A stretch of 64,000 bases of DNA from Escherichia coli (GTDB lineage: Bacteria; Pseudomonadota; Gammaproteobacteria; Enterobacterales; Enterobacteriaceae). A program made the position numbers and the translations under genes. The notes under the pieces are model-generated. The model worked only from the letters and a program-made list of their open reading frames with translations, was not told the DNA's origin and searched no databases. The stretch lies in NCBI RefSeq assembly GCF_030384885.1, contig NZ_CP128613.1; one strand, written 5' to 3'. Positions 28,831 to 41,653 of the stretch are shown here, in pieces. Position 1 is the stretch's first letter, and each line of letters begins with the position of its first letter.

Positions 28831-30111
28831 ATGAGTAAGTCTGAAAATCTATACAGCGCAGCGCGCGAGCTGATCCCTGGCGGTGTGAACTCCCCTGTTC
28901 GCGCCTTTACCGGCGTGGGCGGCACTCCACTGTTTATCGAAAAAGCGGACGGCGCTTATCTGTACGATGTTGATGGCAAAGCCTATATCGATTATGTCGG
29001 TTCCTGGGGGCCGATGGTGCTGGGCCATAACCATCCGGCGATCCGCAATGCCGTGATTGAAGCCGCCGAACGCGGTCTGAGCTTTGGCGCACCGACCGAA
29101 ATGGAAGTGAAAATGGCGCAACTGGTGACCGAACTGGTCCCGACCATGGATATGGTGCGCATGGTGAACTCCGGCACCGAAGCGACGATGAGCGCCATCC
29201 GCCTGGCCCGCGGTTTTACCGGTCGCGACAAAATCATTAAATTTGAAGGTTGTTACCACGGTCACGCTGACTGCCTGCTGGTAAAAGCCGGTTCTGGCGC
29301 ACTCACGTTAGGCCAGCCAAACTCGCCGGGCGTTCCGGCAGATTTCGCCAAACATACCTTAACCTGTACTTATAACGATCTGGCTTCTGTACGCGCCGCG
29401 TTTGAGCAATACCCGCAAGAGATTGCCTGTATTATCGTCGAGCCGGTGGCAGGCAATATGAACTGTGTTCCGCCGCTGCCAGAGTTCATGCCGGGTCTGC
29501 GTGCGCTGTGTGACGAATTTGGCGCGTTGCTGATCATCGATGAAGTGATGACCGGTTTCCGCGTAGCGCTGGCTGGCGCGCAGGATTATTACGACGTGGT
29601 GCCAGACCTCACCTGCCTGGGCAAAATCATCGGCGGTGGAATGCCAGTAGGCGCATTCGGTGGTCGTCGTGATGTGATGGATGCGCTGGCCCCAACCGGT
29701 CCGGTCTACCAGGCGGGTACGCTTTCCGGTAACCCGATTGCGATGGCAGCCGGTTTCGCCTGTCTGAATGAAGTCGCGCAGCCGGGCGTTCACGAGACGC
29801 TGGATGAGCTGACAACACGTCTGGCAGAAGGTCTGCTGGAAGCGGCAGAAGAAGCGGGAATTCCATTGGTCGTTAACCACGTTGGCGGCATGTTCGGTAT
29901 TTTCTTTACCGACGCCGAGTCCGTGACGTGCTATCAGGATGTGATGGCCTGCGACGTCGAGCGCTTTAAGCGTTTCTTCCATATGATGCTGGACGAAGGT
30001 GTTTACCTGGCACCGTCAGCGTTTGAAGCGGGCTTTATGTCTGTGGCGCACAGCATGGAAGATATCAATAACACCATCGATGCTGCACGTCGGGTATTTG
30101 CGAAGTTGTGA
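28831..30111 (+). CDS. hemL: Glutamate-1-semialdehyde 2,1-aminomutase
   Basis: Track ORF 426 aa, [26 protein letters not shown]...; PLP aminotransferase class III. Confidence 0.95.
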
Positions 30112-30121
30112 TCCAGCATGG

Positions 30122-30212
30122 TTTGTCGGATGCGGCGTAAACGCCTTATCCGACCTACAGATCAGGACCGTTTGTAGGCCCGATAAGACGCCACAGCGTC
30201 GCATCGGGCATC
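30122..30212. repeat. REP/BIME element (two inverted REP copies) downstream of hemL
   Basis: TGTCGGATGCGGCGTAAACGCCTTATCCGACCTACA and inverted copy TGTAGGCCCGATAAGACGCCACAGCGTCGCATCGGGCA match the REP consensus family. Confidence 0.7.
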
Positions 30213-30268
30213 CGTTGCCGCGTAAAAGCTTTATCCATCCAGGAGTTAAGGGCCGTTATATGGAAAAA

Positions 30269-32251
30269 TTAACGGCTCTGCTTTCTCAACAAATAGATAA
30301 AATACGGCGCGCCGATAAAGGTCGACAGCAGCCCCGCTGGGATCTGGAATGGAAACAGCACCATCCGCCCACACCAGTCAGCGAACACCAGCAACAATCC
30401 CCCTACCAGCGCCGAAATCACGATGTGCGGCATCGTCCGTCGAAAGCCCATCATCCGTGCGATATGCGGTGCCATCAGGCCAACAAAACTCAACGGCCCG
30501 ATGGTCATTGTCGCGGTCGCCGTCAGGCAAGCCGCCAGCAGCAGTAGCGCAATTCGCGTCGGCGTCAGCGCCATTCCCACGGCTCGTGCGGTATCACCTC
30601 CCAGCGGTAAAATGGTCAGCCAGCGGCGGCACAGCGGGGTAATCGCCAGCAAAATCACCATCACAATTCCGGTGCGCCAGACCTGCGCCTCGGTCGCGTT
30701 GTAGGTCGAACCGGAAATCCAGGTCAGAACTTGCGCCATTCGCGGGTCACCACTTGCCTGCAACATCATCAAAAGCATGGTGAACGCTGTACTTAACGCC
30801 ATCCCCGCCAGTAACATGCGGTGTGGAGAAAATCCACCGCGTCCGGCGGCGATCATAATGATCAACAGCGTCACCGCCGCGCCGAGACTGCCCGCGGGTA
30901 ACAGCCAGCCAAAGGCATTACCCGGCACCAAAAACAGCATCAATACCACACCAAACGCCGCGCCTGAACTAATCCCCAGCACTTCGGGGCTTGCCATCGG
31001 GTTTCCGGTCAGCCGCTGAATAATACAGCCCGCCACTGCCAGCATGATGCCCGCAAACAGTGCCGCCATAATTCGCGGCCAGCGCCAGGGCATTAAATCA
31101 TCGAGCAGCGCCCCGCTCGCCCACGTCCAGCCGTGCGCATCACGACCAAACGACAGCGCCACCACCACAGCCATCAACAGCAGCACGCCGCCCGCGAGGG
31201 CAAACGCCAGCACATGTTGGCGTTCAGCAGCGACACGATCGTTCACCTTCATATCCGGCGCGCTAATGCTGCGTAAACGCGGCAGCAGCCACAGTAACAG
31301 CGGCGCACCTATCAACGCCGTCACCGAACCGGTAGAAACTTCCATCCACACGCGAGTCAGCCAGAGGATGATTTGATCGGAAAGCCAGAGGATCAGCGCA
31401 CCAATCAGCGACGCCAGCAGCAGTCTTGGCAGCAGACGCCGCGCCCCCAACATTTTTGCCAGCAGTGGCGCGAACAACCCGATAAAGCCGATAATCCCCA
31501 CCGCGTTCACCAACAGAGCACTGATGACTATCGCCAGCGACAGCGCCGCCAGACGCGCGAGCGATAAGGCCAGCCCGAGATTACGCGCCACGCCATCATC
31601 AAGCCCCATCAGGGTTAATGGACGAAGTAGCAGTAACGTCAGCATCACGCCGCCCAGCAGCTGTGGCCATAAACGCTCAACGCCGCCCCAGTCGGTTTGC
31701 GTCAGCGTTCCGGTACTCCACAGGAACATGCTTTGCAGCTGGTCGTGATGGAAGATAACCAGTAGCTGATTAATTGCCCCACAATAAAGGCTCACCACCA
31801 GCCCCGCGAGGATCAGTGTTACCGGCGAAAGCCGTTTCCCCCACGCGACGCCAAAAACGATTAAGCCAACAACGCAAGCCCCCGCCAGCGCAGCAAACTG
31901 GCTCGCCATCGCACCAGGGATCGCCCAGAGTGTAGTGACAGTAATTCCCAGTTGCGCACCAGTTGCGACGCCCAACGTGGTCGGCTCCGCCAGCGGGTTA
32001 CGCAGCACTTGCTGAAATAGCACGCCCACCAGCCCCAGACCCGCGCCCACCAGCAGCGAAATCGCCAGACGCGGCAGCAAGCTGTAGTGAAAAATCATCT
32101 GCTCGATGACATCGATATCCGGCGACCAGGTGGCCTGCACCCACTGGCTACGCGGCAGCGCCTGCGAGAAGTTCATCCAGGTGAGCATCGCTGCGGCAAT
32201 CACCAGCAGCGCCAACAATAACGCCGGGAAAAGCGCAATACGTTTACTCAC
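30269..32251 (-). CDS. fhuB: Ferric hydroxamate ABC transporter permease (duplicated permease)
   Basis: Track ORF 660 aa, two homologous membrane halves; synteny fhuACDB. Confidence 0.95.
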   Translation of the reverse strand: MSKRIALFPALLLALLVIAAAMLTWMNFSQALPRSQWVQATWSPDIDVIEQMIFHYSLLPRLAISLLVGAGLGLVGVLFQQVLRNPLAEPTTLGVATGAQLGITVTTLWAIPGAMASQFAALAGACVVGLIVFGVAWGKRLSPVTLILAGLVVSLYCGAINQLLVIFHHDQLQSMFLWSTGTLTQTDWGGVERLWPQLLGGVMLTLLLLRPLTLMGLDDGVARNLGLALSLARLAALSLAIVISALLVNAVGIIGFIGLFAPLLAKMLGARRLLPRLLLASLIGALILWLSDQIILWLTRVWMEVSTGSVTALIGAPLLLWLLPRLRSISAPDMKVNDRVAAERQHVLAFALAGGVLLLMAVVVALSFGRDAHGWTWASGALLDDLMPWRWPRIMAALFAGIMLAVAGCIIQRLTGNPMASPEVLGISSGAAFGVVLMLFLVPGNAFGWLLPAGSLGAAVTLLIIMIAAGRGGFSPHRMLLAGMALSTAFTMLLMMLQASGDPRMAQVLTWISGSTYNATEAQVWRTGIVMVILLAITPLCRRWLTILPLGGDTARAVGMALTPTRIALLLLAACLTATATMTIGPLSFVGLMAPHIARMMGFRRTMPHIVISALVGGLLLVFADWCGRMVLFPFQIPAGLLSTFIGAPYFIYLLRKQSR

Positions 32252-36229: not shown

Positions 36230-36249
36230 TGGTATATCTCTGATGTAAA

Positions 36250-36300
36250 GTGAATGATAACGTAAACGAGAATGATTATTATAAAGATGAGATAATATTC
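36250..36300 (-). promoter_or_regulatory. Fur box / fhuA promoter region
   Basis: GAATGATAACGTAAACGAGAATGATTATTAT and GATAATATTC resemble the GATAATGATAATCATTATC Fur consensus, immediately upstream of the fhuA start. Confidence 0.5.
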
Positions 36301-36371
36301 GAAACGCTACGGCGATAGCAAGTAGCATCCCCTTCAGTTCAATATAAAAGTTCAAGAATCAACCAGAGGAA

Positions 36372-36419
36372 TCAAAAAATGTTAATGATTGCACTGCAAA
36401 GTAAAACCACATTAACATT
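36372..36419 (-). terminator. Terminator-like hairpin between the accessory adhesin gene and fhuA
   Basis: AATGTTAATG ... CATTAACATT 10-bp inverted repeat (22-nt loop) followed on the minus strand by a TTTTTT run; AT-rich stem so predicted stability is modest. Confidence 0.45.
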
Positions 36420-36443
36420 TATGAAATAGGAGTCAGGGAAAGC

Positions 36444-37454
36444 TTATCGATAATACACTTCAAAGGTGGCGACAGAATTAACCAGACCACTTTTTACATT
36501 ACCCGTTTTGATATAACGCGCCTTTAATGGGATGTTAACATTTTGATTTAAAGTGGTTTTTTCGATAACAGTATACTCTGTATCAAATGCTATAACATTG
36601 TTATTACTGTCCAGGATCTGCAGGCCAACACCTTCCGCCATCCCCGATCCAGACTCAATATTGAGAATATTATTACTCGTTATCCCCGTGGATCCTGCGG
36701 AGGTGAAACGGTAATCAACCTTTACATCCTGGGAACAATTTTCAATATGAATTGAAAACCTATCATCAGAAACTACAGGTGACACATTGTTAACATCAAA
36801 ATCATCTGTTCCGATATCATCGAGTGGAACGGTAATATTCTTGTTAATAAGATCACATGTCCCTGGTATAATATTTACCGGCACAGAAATAAAACGAAGC
36901 TGTCCTATAACAAGATTGTCATACTTCCAGTCAGCAACTAATTTACTGGTGTCAATGACTCCATTACCGACAGGCCCTGTCACAACAAACTGAATAGCTG
37001 CATGTATTTTTATCGGATAAACATATCCTCTATTCACTATTGACGAGCCTTTATGCCATGGTGTTATTAAATAACCTGAGGTGAGTTGCGCATTAACGTT
37101 ATTCGCCCATGCAGCACGAAAACCAATCCCTGGAACATTCGTCTGAAACACATCATGAAGGGGGTTATCGGTACGCAAATCGCTATTTGTCAAGACGGTA
37201 AACCCTTGCCAAATGTCACCATTCGCCGAGCAGGAAACTGAAATTGAATTACTAGTAGCTTCGAGTGTGGTAATAATCGTTCCCGGCTCTGCATCGTTAT
37301 TAACATCTAACGCTGGAACTGAGAATTCTATTTTTGCCGGATTTCCCCCATTTCCCGAAATGCTGCAACCGGCGAAAGCCTCAGGAATGGCAACTAAGGC
37401 AAGAAATATTATAGTCAGTAATATTTTTACATAAGAGAAAAATCCTGGCTTCAT
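36444..37454 (-). CDS. Fimbrial tip adhesin (two-domain: N-terminal receptor-binding domain plus C-terminal pilin domain) of accessory chaperone-usher operon
   Basis: Track ORF 336 aa; signal peptide MKPGFFSYVKILLTIIFLALVAIPEAFA; C-terminal pilin-like region with Cys pair and terminal ...SVATFEVYYR beta-strand; last gene after the usher. Confidence 0.75.
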   Translation of the reverse strand: MKPGFFSYVKILLTIIFLALVAIPEAFAGCSISGNGGNPAKIEFSVPALDVNNDAEPGTIITTLEATSNSISVSCSANGDIWQGFTVLTNSDLRTDNPLHDVFQTNVPGIGFRAAWANNVNAQLTSGYLITPWHKGSSIVNRGYVYPIKIHAAIQFVVTGPVGNGVIDTSKLVADWKYDNLVIGQLRFISVPVNIIPGTCDLINKNITVPLDDIGTDDFDVNNVSPVVSDDRFSIHIENCSQDVKVDYRFTSAGSTGITSNNILNIESGSGMAEGVGLQILDSNNNVIAFDTEYTVIEKTTLNQNVNIPLKARYIKTGNVKSGLVNSVATFEVYYR

Positions 37455-37475
37455 TATTCATTCATGTCCTGTTTG

Positions 37476-39950
37476 TTATCGGCACTCTATTGTGGCCTTA
37501 TAGATACCTTTGGTATATGTTTCTGGCACAGCTATAATCCCTGTACATTGCTGATTGTTCTCTTTTCCCCACTGTACCGTAAATGACATGGCATTTTGCA
37601 CACCAGTAATATAAACCTCACCATCCTCACCGACAATTGATGTACTATCCCCTAATGTCAGCAATGATCCAAAGGGTACGTATTCTTTATCGTGGAGCAA
37701 TGTCAATAATGCTCTCATACCATTACGTGCTTTAAAATTGACACCAACGACGGCACCTTTCGAAGGAATAACATCTTGTGTTGCATCAACGATATCAAGA
37801 TTATCGTGCCCCTGAGTATTTACCGTAATGGTGTTATGTCGATAATTTGTCATATTAGGAATAATCGCGTTCCCCCAATAATCAGTATAAACTCCCTGCG
37901 CATTTTGTACTTTTACATTAGCACCATCATCAATATGCACAATCGCGAATGAATCCTGTACTGATTGCCCTAATGTTACTCCATGAGTATGCGCAACCAC
38001 CGCACCTTGTGCGCTATAATTCCATTGTCGACTATTTTTATCATAGTTATATCCCAGACCAAACTCGCCTACTGAACTACGATAACGTCCATTTATACTG
38101 GCACCATAACCCACGTTATTATCGGCATAAGTTTGTTGTAAATTATAGCTAAGGTTATTATCTTGCAGAGCAGTTCCAGCAATACCCATTTGATGAGAGG
38201 TATTACCTTTGTCTGAACGATTTGCATTATACGTCGCCCATGCCCCCGGCAACCAGCGAGACAGAGGAATATTGATTGACAATGAAAATTGCTGCTCACC
38301 AGCCATTCCAGGCATATCTGTCAGTGCGTAATTAACAGACCAGCTAATATCACTCCAGCTAGTACTATAACCCATTCCTATGCTGCGTTCGGATCCTTGC
38401 ATTCCCCAATAATCTTGTTGATAACCATTAAGATAGATCGATCCCCAACGACCTATATTTTGCGAAAGATTAATTTGCAAATGGTTACGTCTATTATTGG
38501 TCTGGCGATAACTATAAATACTCTTATCATCAGGAATATCACGTTGATCAAGTGCCTCCTGAAAAGTATAAAATTGCGATGTTGAATAACGATAGCTTGC
38601 CAGATTTAATGTCGTATCAGTATCTGGAAAATCTTTCGAATACATTGCACGCCATGACAGTCCAGTTGCATCATTGTGTTCTTCAAGTTTCGTATTTGCT
38701 GCTGTGATATCAATAGAAACCGATCCCAGGCGGCCTAAGTCAGCACCAATTCCGGTCACACCAGAACGGTACATGGAGGCTCCAAGTATGCCACCATAAA
38801 TCGTTATTCCATAAGGCAAACCATATATCGCTGTTGCAACCCCAAAAACAGGTTGCTCTGATTTATTATCACTGTCACGATATTTTCCAGCAGCAACACT
38901 ATATTTTAATGCGTTTTCTCGCTGTAGGATTGGAACCGCTGAACTAGCCTGAATAAAGCTGTGTTCTTGTCCATTTGTTTCCTTGATGGTAACGTCCAGA
39001 TCGGCCCCTGCCGTTACCTGGTTTAAGTCTTTAATTTCAAATGGCCCTGCTGATACCCATGTTTGGTAAATGACATAGCCATTCTGTTTAATCACAACTT
39101 GTGCGTCGCTATTTGCAATACCACGTACTACAGGCGCAAAGCCTTGTTCACTCTCAGGCAACATACTGGTATCAGTTTCAAGTTTTATACCTGTCATTTG
39201 CACACTATCAAAAAGTTCACCATTCGTGAAAGTTTGCCCGACTTCCATCTGGCTACGTAATATTTTGATATCACGTTGCAAACTGGTGCTAATCGAATCC
39301 CAATTGGAGCCACTATAAACAGTATTATTACGTAACCGCCATACACCTAAATTCACACCTGAGTTTAAATTCAACCAATTTGAGTTCAGGTTATCACCAT
39401 CACTATTTTGTTGAGAACCACTGACATAATAACTTAACCAGGCAGCACTATCGCCATCATTCCAGTATTTTGGTGAAATACTCCCTATGGCTCTTGAATT
39501 CTGATAAATTTGAGGAATTTGCAGCCGCAGTGTTTGACTATCTAGCTGGAAGTCATAACGTGCGCCATCAATAATCTGTGAAATATCGCCAACCTCAGCG
39601 TCATCATCCATTACTTGTAACGCAGGAATGGCACCCACGTTAAGTCCTAGCTCACCGAGATCTGCCTTTGTAAAACGAGGGATAAGTTTTTTTTTGTCTG
39701 AAGAAAGAATGAACGTAATGTTTCTCTTATCAAGATATTCTTGCCCCCACATTACAGAGGTAAGATAGACACCTGGCGTTAGATTGTTATTATTAATAAA
39801 CTCTTCCAGCACTTTTGTATTTTCAAGCGGACTATCCAACTCCAGGATACGTAAGTTAAATTCATCTCGTGCATAGCTCAATGAATACACTGTAGATAGC
39901 GCAAGCGCTACTCCAGTTAAAACAAATGTACAATGCAGTGGTAGCGGCAT
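37476..39950 (-). CDS. Fimbrial usher (outer membrane assembly platform) of accessory operon
   Basis: Track ORF 824 aa; size and composition typical of FimD/PapC-family ushers; positioned between chaperone and adhesin. Confidence 0.85.
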   Translation of the reverse strand: MPLPLHCTFVLTGVALALSTVYSLSYARDEFNLRILELDSPLENTKVLEEFINNNNLTPGVYLTSVMWGQEYLDKRNITFILSSDKKKLIPRFTKADLGELGLNVGAIPALQVMDDDAEVGDISQIIDGARYDFQLDSQTLRLQIPQIYQNSRAIGSISPKYWNDGDSAAWLSYYVSGSQQNSDGDNLNSNWLNLNSGVNLGVWRLRNNTVYSGSNWDSISTSLQRDIKILRSQMEVGQTFTNGELFDSVQMTGIKLETDTSMLPESEQGFAPVVRGIANSDAQVVIKQNGYVIYQTWVSAGPFEIKDLNQVTAGADLDVTIKETNGQEHSFIQASSAVPILQRENALKYSVAAGKYRDSDNKSEQPVFGVATAIYGLPYGITIYGGILGASMYRSGVTGIGADLGRLGSVSIDITAANTKLEEHNDATGLSWRAMYSKDFPDTDTTLNLASYRYSTSQFYTFQEALDQRDIPDDKSIYSYRQTNNRRNHLQINLSQNIGRWGSIYLNGYQQDYWGMQGSERSIGMGYSTSWSDISWSVNYALTDMPGMAGEQQFSLSINIPLSRWLPGAWATYNANRSDKGNTSHQMGIAGTALQDNNLSYNLQQTYADNNVGYGASINGRYRSSVGEFGLGYNYDKNSRQWNYSAQGAVVAHTHGVTLGQSVQDSFAIVHIDDGANVKVQNAQGVYTDYWGNAIIPNMTNYRHNTITVNTQGHDNLDIVDATQDVIPSKGAVVGVNFKARNGMRALLTLLHDKEYVPFGSLLTLGDSTSIVGEDGEVYITGVQNAMSFTVQWGKENNQQCTGIIAVPETYTKGIYKATIECR

Positions 39951-39991
39951 AAATTCCTTTTCGCCCTGGTATGAAAATACAATTAAGCGGT

Positions 39992-40708
39992 TTATAGTTT
40001 TTGTTGACGTTTCCCTGAACTTGAACCATAGTCAGTTATCACCGACCACTCAACAACACTACCTGCTCCAGCAGGAAGACTAAACCGATTCTCAGAAAAT
40101 GGACCAACCATCATCGACAATGCACCAGGTTCAGATTTCTCCTCGACAGCAGTAATGCTCTTACCTGATACTGTTAGCTCATTAAATGAAATATAAAAAG
40201 GCGTTGGATTTTTTACTATGAGCCTCCCTGATTCTTTATGAAATTTAAGTTTTTCCCATGCAGTTAAAGCGTCGCTATTACTCAAAGAATCTGGTCGCCA
40301 AAATAACTTAAGCCGTACTTTCATTGCAAATTGCAAGGTGTTTTTATCTTTTAGCTCCTCCGGCATAGCAGAAATAGATTTTATATTTGCTAAAAACAAA
40401 CTTTCTCTATCTTGAGGAAGGCTTTCTTTATTTCCTGTAAATACAACATGGAGTAGTGTTTGACGGTTTTCCTCAAGTTTATAAACGGGAGGCGTGATGA
40501 GAAAAGGGGCTTTAGAACCATCAATATTACTCACCCAACTTTGCACGAGATAACGAGCATGTGCGTCTTTATTCTTTAATGTAATTTGAACTTCATTTTG
40601 ATTTGAAGGATAGACAATGCGTGTACCACCAAGTACAACACCTGCTTGTGCTTGTATTGCAGTGAGAAGAAATGTAAATCCTAAAAAGAATCGATAAGAT
40701 ACTGACAT
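39992..40708 (-). CDS. Periplasmic fimbrial chaperone (PapD/FimC family) of accessory operon
   Basis: Track ORF 238 aa; signal peptide; GGTRIVYP... N-terminal motif typical of PapD-like chaperones. Confidence 0.85.
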   Translation of the reverse strand: MSVSYRFFLGFTFLLTAIQAQAGVVLGGTRIVYPSNQNEVQITLKNKDAHARYLVQSWVSNIDGSKAPFLITPPVYKLEENRQTLLHVVFTGNKESLPQDRESLFLANIKSISAMPEELKDKNTLQFAMKVRLKLFWRPDSLSNSDALTAWEKLKFHKESGRLIVKNPTPFYISFNELTVSGKSITAVEEKSEPGALSMMVGPFSENRFSLPAGAGSVVEWSVITDYGSSSGKRQQKL

Positions 40709-40753
40709 AAATAACCCTCCATGGTCAGATAGTCCTTCAATACACTATAAATA

Positions 40754-41320
40754 TTACCGATAGAAGACTTCAAACGTCGCAGATGAAGCATATTTCCCCG
40801 CAGTTGGCGGGTTATTACCAATCTGGATGACATTAGCAGTATAATTAAATATCGTGGGATTTACATCGCCAGCATTATCAACATCAGTGGATTCATCAGG
40901 GACAGAACCATCAAATTTTACACTACTTGTTCCGCCATTTTTATTTGTTACCGTAATACCCACATTTGTTGCACTACCCGCAGCAGTTTCGCTATTTTCA
41001 AGGCGAAGAGAACCAGTATCCGTTGTGGTTCCAGAAAATGTCAGGTTTAGTTTTGTAACCAATGGATCACACTTTAGCAACTCAATCTTAAAATCTTTTG
41101 AAGTCCCAATCGTACCATCCCCGGTATAGTCCGCAGGGTAAGTATCTGCAAAAGTCACCGTGCCTGTCGTACTACTAGAATCATTGACATTGATTTCGCA
41201 GGTATCAGCAACAATTTTACCATTGAAGTTAACAATCCCAGTATCTACAGCAAATACACTCGTACTTACTGCTGCCAGGAAAGTTCCTGACGCAAATAGA
41301 GAAAGCAATTTTTTATTCAT
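40754..41320 (-). CDS. Major fimbrial subunit (pilin) of accessory operon
   Basis: Track ORF 188 aa; signal peptide MNKKLLSLFASGTFLAAVSTSVFA; conserved Cys pair (DTCEIN ... LLKCDP); C-terminal SATFEVFYR; first gene of operon. Confidence 0.8.
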   Translation of the reverse strand: MNKKLLSLFASGTFLAAVSTSVFAVDTGIVNFNGKIVADTCEINVNDSSSTTGTVTFADTYPADYTGDGTIGTSKDFKIELLKCDPLVTKLNLTFSGTTTDTGSLRLENSETAAGSATNVGITVTNKNGGTSSVKFDGSVPDESTDVDNAGDVNPTIFNYTANVIQIGNNPPTAGKYASSATFEVFYR

Positions 41321-41653
41321 AAAAATCCCTTAATTATGAGTCAATAAAGCATGATTCCATTCCAGAGAGGCTGGGCAGGACTTGATAAATATTGATAATA
41401 TAAATATATGCAAATAATAAAATTATTTTAGATTAGAGCAAAAAACACATTACATGTCTATACGACATATAATAAAAAGGTTACAACCATCTGAAATTTA
41501 AAGATTTGTTCTTATTCTCAAAAATATAAAATCATAAATTAAAAATATAAATTCACCCCATTAGATTCATTAAATAAATACTTATTATATTTATCTATAT
41601 AACGTCATAGTAATCTATTACGCTCTCCGCATCAGCGGAGAGCTATTACGATA
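41321..41653 (-). promoter_or_regulatory. AT-rich control region upstream of accessory fimbrial operon (promoter expected here), including a perfect stem-loop next to the mrcB stop
   Basis: 333-bp strongly AT-rich non-coding stretch with many A/T tracts; 10-bp inverted repeat CGCTCTCCGC-atca-GCGGAGAGCG near 41623..41646; no promoter elements could be assigned with confidence. Confidence 0.4.

Follow-up and report, generated by a model that had tools for sequence, protein, structure and literature searches.

In the Escherichia coli DNA analyzed here (a stretch of 64,000 nucleotides, hereafter the window), the genes hemL and fhuB converge on a 157-bp spacer that is occupied by two intact copies of the repetitive extragenic palindromic (REP) sequence, the commonest small repeat of E. 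coli, in inverse orientation, together forming a bacterial interspersed mosaic element (BIME), and by the remains of a third (Table 1). Both the convergent gene order and the inverted REP pair had been proposed in a first-pass annotation of the sequence. The gene order is confirmed by the open reading frame list and by the RefSeq annotation of E. coli 2013C-4282 (NZ_CP027579.1), whose genome is 100% identical, while sequence, repeat search and alignment agree on the REP pair. Two further open reading frames, at 30016-30204 on the minus strand and 29999-30547 on the plus strand, were set aside as mechanical; they overlap hemL, fhuB and the repeats. REP1 is sense in the hemL transcript, and REP2, which starts 59 nt downstream of the fhuB stop codon, is sense in the fhuB transcript. 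The last 9 nt of the short segment between the hemL stop codon and REP1 resemble the end of a z2 REP followed by the head-to-head linker of the Escherichia whittamii array, GCATTGTTT.

Table 1. Features of the hemL-fhuB spacer and its flanking genes (window positions).
Feature	Positions	Strand	Sequence or detail	Basis
hemL CDS, glutamate-1-semialdehyde 2,1-aminomutase	28831-30111	+	stop TGA 30109-30111	ORF list, RefSeq annotation of 100%-identical genome
Equivalent of putative hemL 3'-UTR RNA 'AC0173'	30089-30164	+		K-12 coordinate mapping, ungapped window/K-12 alignment
13-nt spacer, hemL stop to first paired REP1 base	30112-30124	+	TCCAGCATGGTTT	
REP1, y class	30125-30158	+	GTCGGATGCGGCGTAAACGCCTTATCCGACCTAC	sequence, alignment, fold
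Tail-to-tail linker, 15 nt, S-type (short)	30159-30173	.	AGATCAGGACCGTTT	
REP2, long-Z (z2) class	30174-30209	-	GTAGGCCCGATAAGACGCCACAGCGTCGCATCGGGC; reverse complement GCCCGATGCGACGCTGTGGCGTCTTATCGGGCCTAC	alignment, pair counts, fold
Decayed third unit	30210-30258	+		direct repeat D1, alignment, fold
Right junction, BIME block to fhuB stop	30259-30268	.	TATGGAAAAA; ATATGG where next GTAGG would start	
fhuB CDS, Fe3+-hydroxamate ABC permease	30269-32251	-	stop TAA 30271-30269	ORF list, RefSeq annotation of 100%-identical genome

Alignment to three published REP sequences (quoted in PMC11208160) revealed that REP1 is identical to the y sequence at 32 of 34 positions and that REP2 is identical to the long-Z sequence at 32 of 36 positions, versus 26 of 36 for short Z; the first-pass annotation had named such an alignment as the one that could overturn its proposal, and the proposal withstood it. 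The two copies face each other tail to tail (CTAC...GTAG) across 15 nt, and both end in CTAC, the conserved GTAG/CTAC foot tetranucleotide of REPs, which are imperfect palindromes of 20 to 40 nt. When a degenerate REP consensus with a variable gap, GCCKGATG-N(5-20)-CTTATCMGGCCTAC, was searched, REP1 and REP2 each matched with two substitutions and no other such match occurred in the 64-kb window, while 100 dinucleotide-preserving shuffles gave no match at ≤2 substitutions and, at ≤3, 0.01 matches on average. The repeat search recovered the internal palindrome of each REP (14-nt arms, 86% complementary) and an inverted repeat between the two (18-nt arms, 83% complementary). The extragenic, high-copy character of REPs is also evident, with the pair lying in a spacer, the REP pattern matching 39 times in 300 kb of K-12, and a 401-nt query from the locus matching a median of six places per E. 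coli genome at megablast stringency. At the level of single pairs, the outer stem of REP1 carries T:A versus C:G in the consensus, and its sequence recurs unchanged among the y copies of the K-12 tldD-yhdP BIME-2. Stem position 4 of REP2 is C:G versus T:A in the family; both sides have changed with pairing kept, and this variant is common to all Escherichia copies at the hemL-fhuB locus.

The earlier span for the element, 30122-30212, brackets both intact REPs but misses the third copy. The latter consists of a y-type REP remnant at 30210-30243 (22/34 identical to y) and an S-linker remnant at 30244-30258 (11/15 identical to 30159-30173), and was also picked up as a direct repeat, D1, with 72% identity over 47 nt at a spacing of 85. 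It no longer forms a hairpin (fold z-score of -0.15), and its orthologue in E. coli SCPM-O-B-8794 is closer to y (28/34 identical). The window thus holds a single intact pair followed by the decayed REP, or about 1.5 units of a y-S-z2 array. Two or more intact units were found at hemL-fhuB in none of the E. coli genomes, where the full-length matches belonged to other BIME-2 loci at 81 to 86% identity.

According to the published definitions, a BIME combines inversely oriented REPs, BIME-1 consisting of y, z1 and the L linker and BIME-2 of y, z2 and the S linker (PMC3333891). BIME-2 elements recur in tandem, with s/l/r motifs joining them head to head. The window element pairs REP1 on the plus strand with REP2 on the minus strand, and its y and z2 composition is that of BIME-2; its 15-nt linker is of the short S type and can be aligned, with no gap, to that of tldD-yhdP, which also has 15 nt. 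The elements at sucB-sucC and tldD-yhdP have been published as BIME-2 made of y and z2 (PMC6379681), and our sequence scan found long Z at both K-12 loci. A reading of REP2 as z1, which would make the element an 'atypical' y-plus-z1 BIME, was rejected on that presence of long Z at published BIME-2 loci; the ~97-bp length of BIME-1 entries and the short Z in one listed BIME-1 also rule out this label. The first-pass annotation had further held that such elements bind IHF, implying a BIME-1 or RIB (RIP) element, and a single intact pair of inverted REPs, placed where two transcription units have their 3' ends, is indeed typical of BIME-1 (PMC3333891). However, REP2 is nearer to long Z than to the short z1, the linker is GC-rich and 15 nt long versus ~35 nt and AT-rich, and the IHF consensus WATCARNNNNTTR has no match at ≤1 mismatch in the 157-bp spacer of either the window or K-12. 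A control BIME-1 of K-12 at 138700-138797 shows what is expected of that class, namely, short Z followed by 35 nt of linker that contains a perfect IHF consensus, and then y, and the published table places the K-12 copy of the hemL-fhuB element under BIMEs2 rather than BIMEs1. A BIME-1 identity is therefore highly improbable, and the IHF claim, which describes a property of BIME-1, does not carry over to an element with z2 and a 15-nt linker lacking a consensus match. Judged from its sequence, the element is BIME-2-like in architecture and not of the IHF-binding BIME-1/RIB type. 'BIME' does not name a single functional class: IHF binding is confined to BIME-1, and only some BIME-2 elements are cleaved by gyrase.

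The element is an ordinary, already known and cataloged BIME. Its K-12 (MG1655/W3110) copy, at 173505-173589, is listed under 'BIMEs2' in Table DS3 of Sutormin et al. 2019 (PMC6379681). A check of the RefSeq K-12 annotation for REP features found none carried there, and a literature search joining hemL, fhuB and REP returned nothing relevant. The K-12 copy occupies the orthologous site in a spacer of the same 157 bp, with the same order of y, 15-nt linker, z2 and decayed y, and all 48 stem positions are identical to those of the window; the two differ at 9 of 85 positions, all unpaired (one in the REP1 loop, two in the REP2 loop and six in the linker), in flanking genes that are only 95 to 96% identical. 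Gyrase binding, also claimed in the first-pass annotation, suits the BIME-2 class as a type of target, but Topo-seq placed no gyrase cleavage site inside the K-12 copy in any of the four conditions and a single oxolinic-acid site at 173599, 10 bp outside it (PMC6379681). Gyrase cleaves only a subset of BIME-2 elements (PMC6379681), and the window element may act as a weak gyrase site in DNA.

Both intact REPs are predicted to fold into stable RNA hairpins, with REP1 at -21.1 kcal/mol (z of -5.4) and REP2 at -22.1 kcal/mol (z of -4.9), or -22.5 kcal/mol (z of -4.6) on the minus strand; none of 200 shuffles was as stable as either. Of the cells counted, 99% were paired, versus 28 to 39% when the 3' partners were slid. 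Across six orthologues with 4 to 9% flanking divergence, none of the 48 stem positions varied versus 13 of 29 unpaired positions (Fisher p = 1e-6), and the linker was the most variable part, with changes at 9 of its 15 positions. On this substitution pattern, the REP hairpins are constrained. Such invariance in the stems of both intact REPs requires either selection or ongoing homogenization, and the conservation could have come about through gene conversion or RayT-linked homogenization rather than through selection on an RNA function.

A survey of the same spacer in 5,426 complete E. coli genomes revealed two main alleles. The 157-bp BIME allele was present in 1,701 genomes, whereas 3,714 carried a 34-bp spacer with a canonical intrinsic terminator for hemL, made up of a 10-bp stem followed by TTTTATT; the BIME is missing from ~68% of the genomes. 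Outside E. coli, two Citrobacter species share the short spacer and the same GCCTCGCC...GGCGAGGC hairpin, and BIME alleles with the same right-hand boundary as that of the window occur in E. whittamii, Escherichia sp. E1V33 and one divergent E. coli. In E. whittamii, nine REPs with a 7-nt head-to-head linker lie at hemL-fhuB, and that array is closed by the boundary seen in the window. In Leclercia and Superficieibacter, other palindromic repeats fill the same spacer. Because the terminator hairpin is common to Citrobacter, the 34-bp allele is, on sequence comparison, probably ancestral and the BIME allele derived, a polarity that rests mainly on the two Citrobacter species since the degenerate hemL C-terminus scan of species genomes gave only nine loci, with E. 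albertii, E. fergusonii, E. marmotae and Salmonella not among them. The comparison of copy number across strains that the first-pass annotation had suggested thus yields 0, 3 or 9 REPs within Escherichia; the BIME label given there is correct, while the absence of the element from about two-thirds of strains and the intrinsic terminator that it replaced had been overlooked.

We infer from the literature that a RayT/TnpA-REP tyrosine transposase laid down the block at the cost of the terminator hairpin, and that array length would have changed later, to nine REPs in E. whittamii and three in E. coli, the last of them decaying. The rayT gene is present in K-12 and in 3,569 of the 5,426 complete E. 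coli genomes (66%). At the DNA level, the block is also a target for REP-specific mobile elements: in strain N96, IS621 (a bridge-RNA recombinase for which REPs are a known target) is inserted in the z2 REP of this locus, after GTAG, making this REP a natural IS621 landing site. Such mobility could be the whole story, the element being a selfish or neutral REPIN-like doublet, dispersed by RayT and without function for its host, that landed in and destroyed the hemL terminator and has been tolerated, Rho termination together with the hairpins being enough. The presence/absence polymorphism (missing in 68% of genomes), the REP numbers of 0, 3 and 9 across Escherichia, the third copy that has decayed and lost its hairpin, the frequency of rayT in E. 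coli, and the palindromic repeats in the Leclercia and Superficieibacter spacers all agree with this explanation. It nevertheless seems on balance unlikely, though a serious contender, given that the stems of the intact REPs are invariant across 4 to 9% flanking divergence while linker and loops vary freely, and that the allele has been kept across species boundaries. Moreover, it is compatible with our preferred reading, since a selfish origin does not prevent an element from shaping an mRNA 3' end.

That preferred reading concerns how transcripts end at the locus. Both convergent transcripts would enter the block, each meeting its own 'sense' REP first. Hairpins of about -21 kcal/mol would not terminate RNA polymerase alone because they lack a U-tract, and Rho would end hemL transcription farther along, in sequence antisense to fhuB. 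The transcript would then be shortened by 3'-to-5' exonucleases as far as the REP1 hairpin, leaving a defined and protected mRNA 3' end. For K-12, a region of Rho termination has been mapped to the hemL strand at 173016 (Rho score of 8.6, p = 1.7e-22; PMC7815308), and since such regions were called in 800-nt windows, it locates termination only roughly. In a published general model, Rho terminates transcription first and the RNA is then trimmed back to a protective stem-loop, which is a REP in 24% of cases (PMC6061677). Moreover, a putative 76-nt RNA named AC0173 was called from RNA-seq at K-12 NC_000913:173,549-173,624 on the minus strand (PMC12306157, Table S1), and its 3' end, transferred from K-12 by coordinate mapping, falls 6 nt past REP1; the published tables searched list no curated Term-seq 3' end for hemL. 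The stabilization of upstream mRNA asserted in the first-pass annotation is, by analogy with this K-12 RNA, plausible, and the K-12 data fit a picture in which REP hairpins guard mRNA 3' ends and Rho terminates transcription at a point farther downstream. Every piece of functional evidence for the window element comes from K-12, and the two copies differ at 9 of 85 positions, none of them paired. In addition, REP1 lies 13 nt past the hemL stop codon and may slow ribosomes at the termination stage and so lower HemL output, a suggestion made because of a published rule that sets a REP-to-stop distance of ≤15 nt (quoted second-hand in PMC12306157).

The paired hairpins might instead form a bidirectional intrinsic terminator serving both hemL and fhuB in place of the one that was lost, as two stable GC-rich hairpins between convergent genes, at the very position of the true terminator in the other allele, would suggest. 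However, no U-tract follows either hairpin, whichever strand is read, and a terminator scan of 29900-30500 on both strands found no terminator-like site in the BIME allele. The bicyclomycin-sensitive read-through of K-12 on the hemL strand lies downstream of the element, and in the literature REPs are described as barriers to exonucleases or, at the most, as attenuators linked to Rho. We consider an intrinsic-terminator role quite improbable.

Equally small is the chance that the locus encodes a functional small RNA, either a hemL 3'-UTR sRNA (AC0173) or a trans-acting, nucleoid-associated REP RNA like naRNA4. The prediction criteria for the putative 76-nt RNA at the K-12 locus included Hfq binding, and Rfam matches to naRNA4 (RF02564) were obtained at 39.9, 35.5 and 31.4 bits; all of these, however, fall well short of the gathering score, 59.5, and the REP sequence common to both accounts for them. 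AC0173 is itself labeled putative and could equally be a REP-stabilized decay intermediate, the unpaired linker, which would have to carry a seed, is the least conserved part of the element, and most strains have no element at all.

Taken jointly, membership in BIME-2, a derived allele, RayT origin, and Rho termination with a REP-protected hemL 3' end form the explanation in which we have good confidence. Any benefit would be small or conditional, given that ~68% of strains do without the element and that its third copy is decaying. A bolder proposal is that the two alleles are an old cross-species Escherichia polymorphism that switches how hemL transcripts end and is kept by selection rather than drift; we regard it as doubtful, and if true, the alleles would measurably alter the output of HemL (haem precursor), of Fhu (iron-siderophore uptake) or of both. 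The hemL-fhuB locus offers a clean natural case of a REP block in place of an intrinsic terminator, and since both alleles are common in E. coli, old questions on REPs, such as mRNA stabilization, its dependence on Rho termination, and the damping of translation near a stop codon, can be tested in isogenic strains.

Compared with known systems, the element shares with BIME-1 (RIB/RIP; K-12 138700-138797) a single inverted REP pair with one y at gene 3' ends, but its Z is 36 nt rather than 29 nt, and a 15-nt linker stands where BIME-1 has 35 AT-rich nucleotides with the perfect IHF consensus. naRNA4 is an RNA from the REP325 BIME cluster with six repeats; REP sequence and hairpins are common to both (match E-values of 1.7e-5 to 1.3e-3), while the window element lies at another locus and has one pair versus six repeats, and its 31 to 40 bits, 39.9 at best, stay below the 59.5 bits of membership. 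The REPINs of Bertels and Rainey are reportedly REP doublets that form hairpins and are mobilized by RAYTs, and the element resembles them in that two REPs stand inverted across a short spacer, in a RAYT-encoding lineage, with presence/absence and copy-number dynamics; its arms, however, belong to two REP classes (y and z2), so that folding predicts a hairpin for each instead of a single long one. Also among the closest systems, besides the K-12 orthologue, are the BIME-2 elements of tldD-yhdP and sucB-sucC. These comprise 4 to 8 REPs versus one intact pair in the window, their z2 copies carry T:A where that of the window has its locus-specific C:G pair, and sucB-sucC contains 4 to 6 gyrase cleavage sites versus none inside the K-12 hemL-fhuB copy. 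The REP classes, the tail-to-tail layout, the 15-nt linker and the ...CCGTTT end are all the same, and the window unit aligns along its full length to the tldD-yhdP unit, with REP1 identical to one of the y copies of that array.

The 157-bp spacer on which hemL and fhuB converge was found to carry two REP sequences in tail-to-tail orientation (CTAC ... GTAG, 15-nt gap) and the remnant of a third. The genes were called from the ORF list and the RefSeq annotation of Escherichia coli 2013C-4282, a genome whose sequence matches the 401 bases around the element at 100%. A variable-gap scan of the 64 kb with the classical REP consensus returned exactly REP1 and REP2, with two substitutions each, while 100 dinucleotide-preserving shuffles gave none when ≤2 substitutions were allowed and 0.01 on average when ≤3 were. 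Moreover, a repeat search recovered both REP-internal palindromes as well as the REP1/REP2 inverted repeat, and the folding energies of the RNA hairpins are −21.1 kcal/mol for REP1 in the hemL sense and −22.5 kcal/mol for REP2 in the fhuB sense, each with z about −5. The inverted REP pair that the first-pass annotation had placed at 30122-30212 was thus confirmed by sequence, repeat search, consensus scan, and folds. It is a catalogued, already known member of the REP/BIME family, which has been described since the 1980s. The RefSeq annotation of K-12 contains no REP or repeat_region features in NC_000913.3 150001-200000 (comparison locus L008) and five other 50-kb stretches; because a REP pattern scan of those 300 kb gave 39 matches, all unannotated, missing repeat annotation there is uninformative.

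Features of the hemL-fhuB spacer and of the fhuA-mrcB interval (window positions unless stated otherwise), with REP identities to the reference classes
Feature	Position	Strand	Sequence or basis	y	Short Z	Long Z
hemL	28831-30111	+	ORF list and RefSeq annotation of 2013C-4282			
REP1	30125-30158	+	GTCGGATGCGGCGTAAACGCCTTATCCGACCTAC	32/34	25/34	25/36
REP2	30174-30209	-	reverse complement GCCCGATGCGACGCTGTGGCGTCTTATCGGGCCTAC	27/36	26/36	32/36
Third y-type REP remnant	30210-30243			22/34		
Inverted repeat across fhuB stop codon	30249-30279		AGGGCCGTTA / TAACGGCTCT			
fhuB	30269-32251	-	ORF list and RefSeq annotation of 2013C-4282			
Short allele	O157:H7 locus L004, 413-446; replaces 30112-30268		TGATTTTGCCTCGCCCACCGGGCGAGGCATTTTA (34-bp spacer)			
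Fimbrial operon	36444-41320 (flanks 36230-36443, 41321-41653)					

The third copy, overlooked in the first-pass annotation, was revealed by a 72% identical repeat of 30126-30172 at 30211-30257 (spacing 85). It no longer forms a hairpin (fold z = −0.15) and is followed by a linker remnant, which makes up one half of the 10-nt inverted repeat spanning the fhuB stop codon (90% complementary, 11-nt gap). Considering that its orthologue in the divergent E. coli SCPM-O-B-8794 is still 28/34 identical to y, the element amounts to ∼1.5 y-linker-Z units, of which the last half-unit is decaying. Elsewhere in the window, a four-gene chaperone-usher fimbrial operon (two fimbrial proteins, one usher, and one chaperone; about 5.3 kb, AT-rich) lies between fhuA and mrcB, where K-12 has only a 220-bp spacer; the island takes the place of about 130 bp of this K-12 sequence, including a small hairpin (ACCGGATGGCGAGTTGCCATCCGGT) after mrcB.

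Copy number at this site, which the first-pass annotation had proposed comparing across strains, is variable, and BIME variability of this kind between strains has been reported (PMC3333891). The whole 401-nt query was covered in only 1,701 of 5,426 complete E. coli genomes, the remainder lacking 123 bp, and a short-form query revealed that 3,714 carry a 34-bp spacer, so that about 11 genomes fall outside the two alleles. K-12 has the BIME allele, and the O157:H7, O25b:H4-ST131, and 042 genomes examined have the short one. The latter scores as a canonical hemL terminator, with a 10-bp stem (8 G:C pairs) that begins only ∼6 nt past the hemL stop codon and is followed by TTTTATT (−20.6 kcal/mol), and it has a second in-frame TGA directly after the hemL stop (TGATGA). 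The alleles are thus replacements of each other rather than products of a simple insertion. A functional difference between the terminator and BIME alleles, with both of them being maintained, is possible but improbable. In strain N96 (NZ_CM169999.1; locus L023, 2551-3988), IS621 has inserted inside the z2 REP, between the equivalents of window positions 30177 and 30178, directly after GTAG; each junction shows AG (CT on the opposite strand). IS621 belongs to the IS110 family and is the bridge-RNA recombinase. REPs are the known natural target of IS621 (PMC11208160), and the N96 insertion is a natural example of such targeting at hemL-fhuB.

A search for expanded arrays found at least two intact units at hemL-fhuB in no E. 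coli genome; Escherichia whittamii Sa2BVA5 (locus L018, 3683-4124) has nine REPs (y-S-z2 four times and then y-S, period 92), and a three-REP form occurs in Escherichia sp. E1V33 and E. coli SCPM-O-B-8794. Outgroups were sought with a degenerate hemL C-terminus scan, one genome per species, which returned nine loci. In two Citrobacter species, the spacer is short and contains the GCCTCGCC...GGCGAGGC hairpin seen in the E. coli short allele, and Kosakonia has a short hairpin spacer too; thus, the terminator allele is most likely ancestral. All BIME alleles have in common the z2 variant and the right boundary (...CCGTT followed by ATATGG), and the hemL/fhuB flanks of the other BIME lineages are 91 to 95% identical to the window, so the BIME allele looks old, or moved by recombination, within an unusually diverse region. 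Judging from the identities of the 3' kilobase of hemL and fhuB (29111-31269) to K-12 (95 to 96%) and to O157:H7 and O25b:H4 (94 to 97%), this divergence is unusually deep for E. coli core genes, and at the hemL end the window resembles a terminator-allele strain more closely than it does K-12, a pattern suggestive of mosaic recombination in the fhu-hemL region. In Superficieibacter and Leclercia (loci L014, L020, and L022), the spacer holds unrelated palindromic repeats, such as CCCTCTCCC...GGGAGAGGG boxes and a GTAG-tagged REP-like hairpin (GTAGGCCGGGTAAGGCG...CCACCCGGC); this spacer thus seems to have been colonised repeatedly.

Among six orthologous copies, variation affected 0/48 stem positions, 1/8 GTAG/CTAC positions, 4/14 loop or bulge positions, and 9/15 linker positions (paired versus unpaired, Fisher p = 1e-6), and in a wider alignment 99% of cells were paired versus 28 to 39% in slid controls. 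This shows that the hairpins are under constraint, in which selection on RNA or DNA structure is not separable from homogenisation by the REP system. RayT, whose gene is present in K-12 and 66% of genomes, may have laid the REP block over the terminator hairpin. Purely selfish DNA would be compatible with both the polymorphism and the decay, and such an origin does not exclude a role of the REP hairpins in defining and protecting the 3' ends of both convergent mRNAs, as we propose.

The first-pass annotation had also claimed stabilisation of upstream mRNA, and three published K-12 observations fit together in this respect. A putative 76-nt 3'-UTR RNA on the hemL strand (AC0173; 173,549-173,624) (PMC12306157 Table S1) maps to window 30089-30164, ending 6 nt past REP1. 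The hemL strand also has a Rho termination region, antisense to fhuB, at 173016 (Rho score 8.6, p = 1.7e-22) (PMC7815308). After Rho-dependent termination, PNPase and RNase II generally trim the transcript as far as a protective stem-loop, and 24% of these stem-loops are REPs (PMC6061677). An intrinsic bidirectional terminator would require U-tracts, but none follows the REP1 or REP2 hairpin, a terminator scan found 0 terminator-like sites in the BIME allele, and Rho-inhibitor sensitivity also argues against it. A trans-acting small RNA, or an RNA resembling naRNA4, was likewise considered, but Rfam scores were 31 to 40 bits against a threshold of 59.5. REP1 starts 13 nt past the hemL stop, within the ≤15-nt range at which REPs are reported to stall terminating ribosomes (cited in PMC12306157), and it may therefore damp HemL translation; the REP nearest to the fhuB stop is 59 nt away.

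Gyrase and IHF binding had been claimed as well. Regarding gyrase, the element class is right, but Topo-seq detected no cleavage site within the K-12 copy (173505-173589) under ciprofloxacin, rifampicin plus ciprofloxacin, microcin B17, or oxolinic acid (PMC6379681). One oxolinic-acid site (3/3 replicates) at 173599, 10 bp outside this copy (PMC6379681) and in the stretch that separates the y REP from the hemL stop codon, could equally reflect convergent-transcription supercoiling. This lack of internal cleavage, the Rho-dependent read-through, and the short RNA ending past REP1 are shown for K-12 only, by others' data. IHF binding does not apply: WATCARNNNNTTR had no match at ≤1 mismatch across the 157-bp spacer, in the window and K-12 alike, whereas a BIME-1 control linker (K-12 138700-138797) has a perfect one (AAATCAATGGATTG, reverse strand).

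Alignment to the reference classes quoted in PMC11208160, a check proposed in the first-pass annotation, assigned REP1 to y and REP2 to long Z. The two differences of REP1 from y represent a single compensated base-pair change (C:G to T:A), also present in K-12 y copies at tldD-yhdP and gltP-yjcO, and REP2 has T:A to C:G at stem position 4, common to every Escherichia copy at hemL-fhuB. BIME-1 combines y and z1 with a long L linker, often with an IHF site, BIME-2 occurs in tandem copies that combine y and z2 with a short S linker, and chimeras are termed "atypical" (PMC3333891). Our scan found long Z at K-12 sucB-sucC and tldD-yhdP, both BIME-2 of y and z2 (PMC6379681), and short Z, a 35-nt linker, and y, in this order, at 138700-138797, listed as BIME-1 (PMC6379681). 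Long Z therefore equals z2, and the hemL-fhuB pair, of y and z2 classes, has BIME-2 architecture. Its K-12 orthologue appears as "BIMEs2 173505-173589" in Table DS3 (PMC6379681), a category that also includes single REPs and is thus effectively "not BIME-1." A BIME-1/RIB element was considered, but two of its defining features fail: the listed BIME-1 has short Z and 35 nt, while the hemL-fhuB element has long Z and 15 nt. With the tldD-yhdP BIME-2, in contrast, it shares the y and z2 classes and the 15-nt linker length, and the two units align ungapped over their whole length, linker included.
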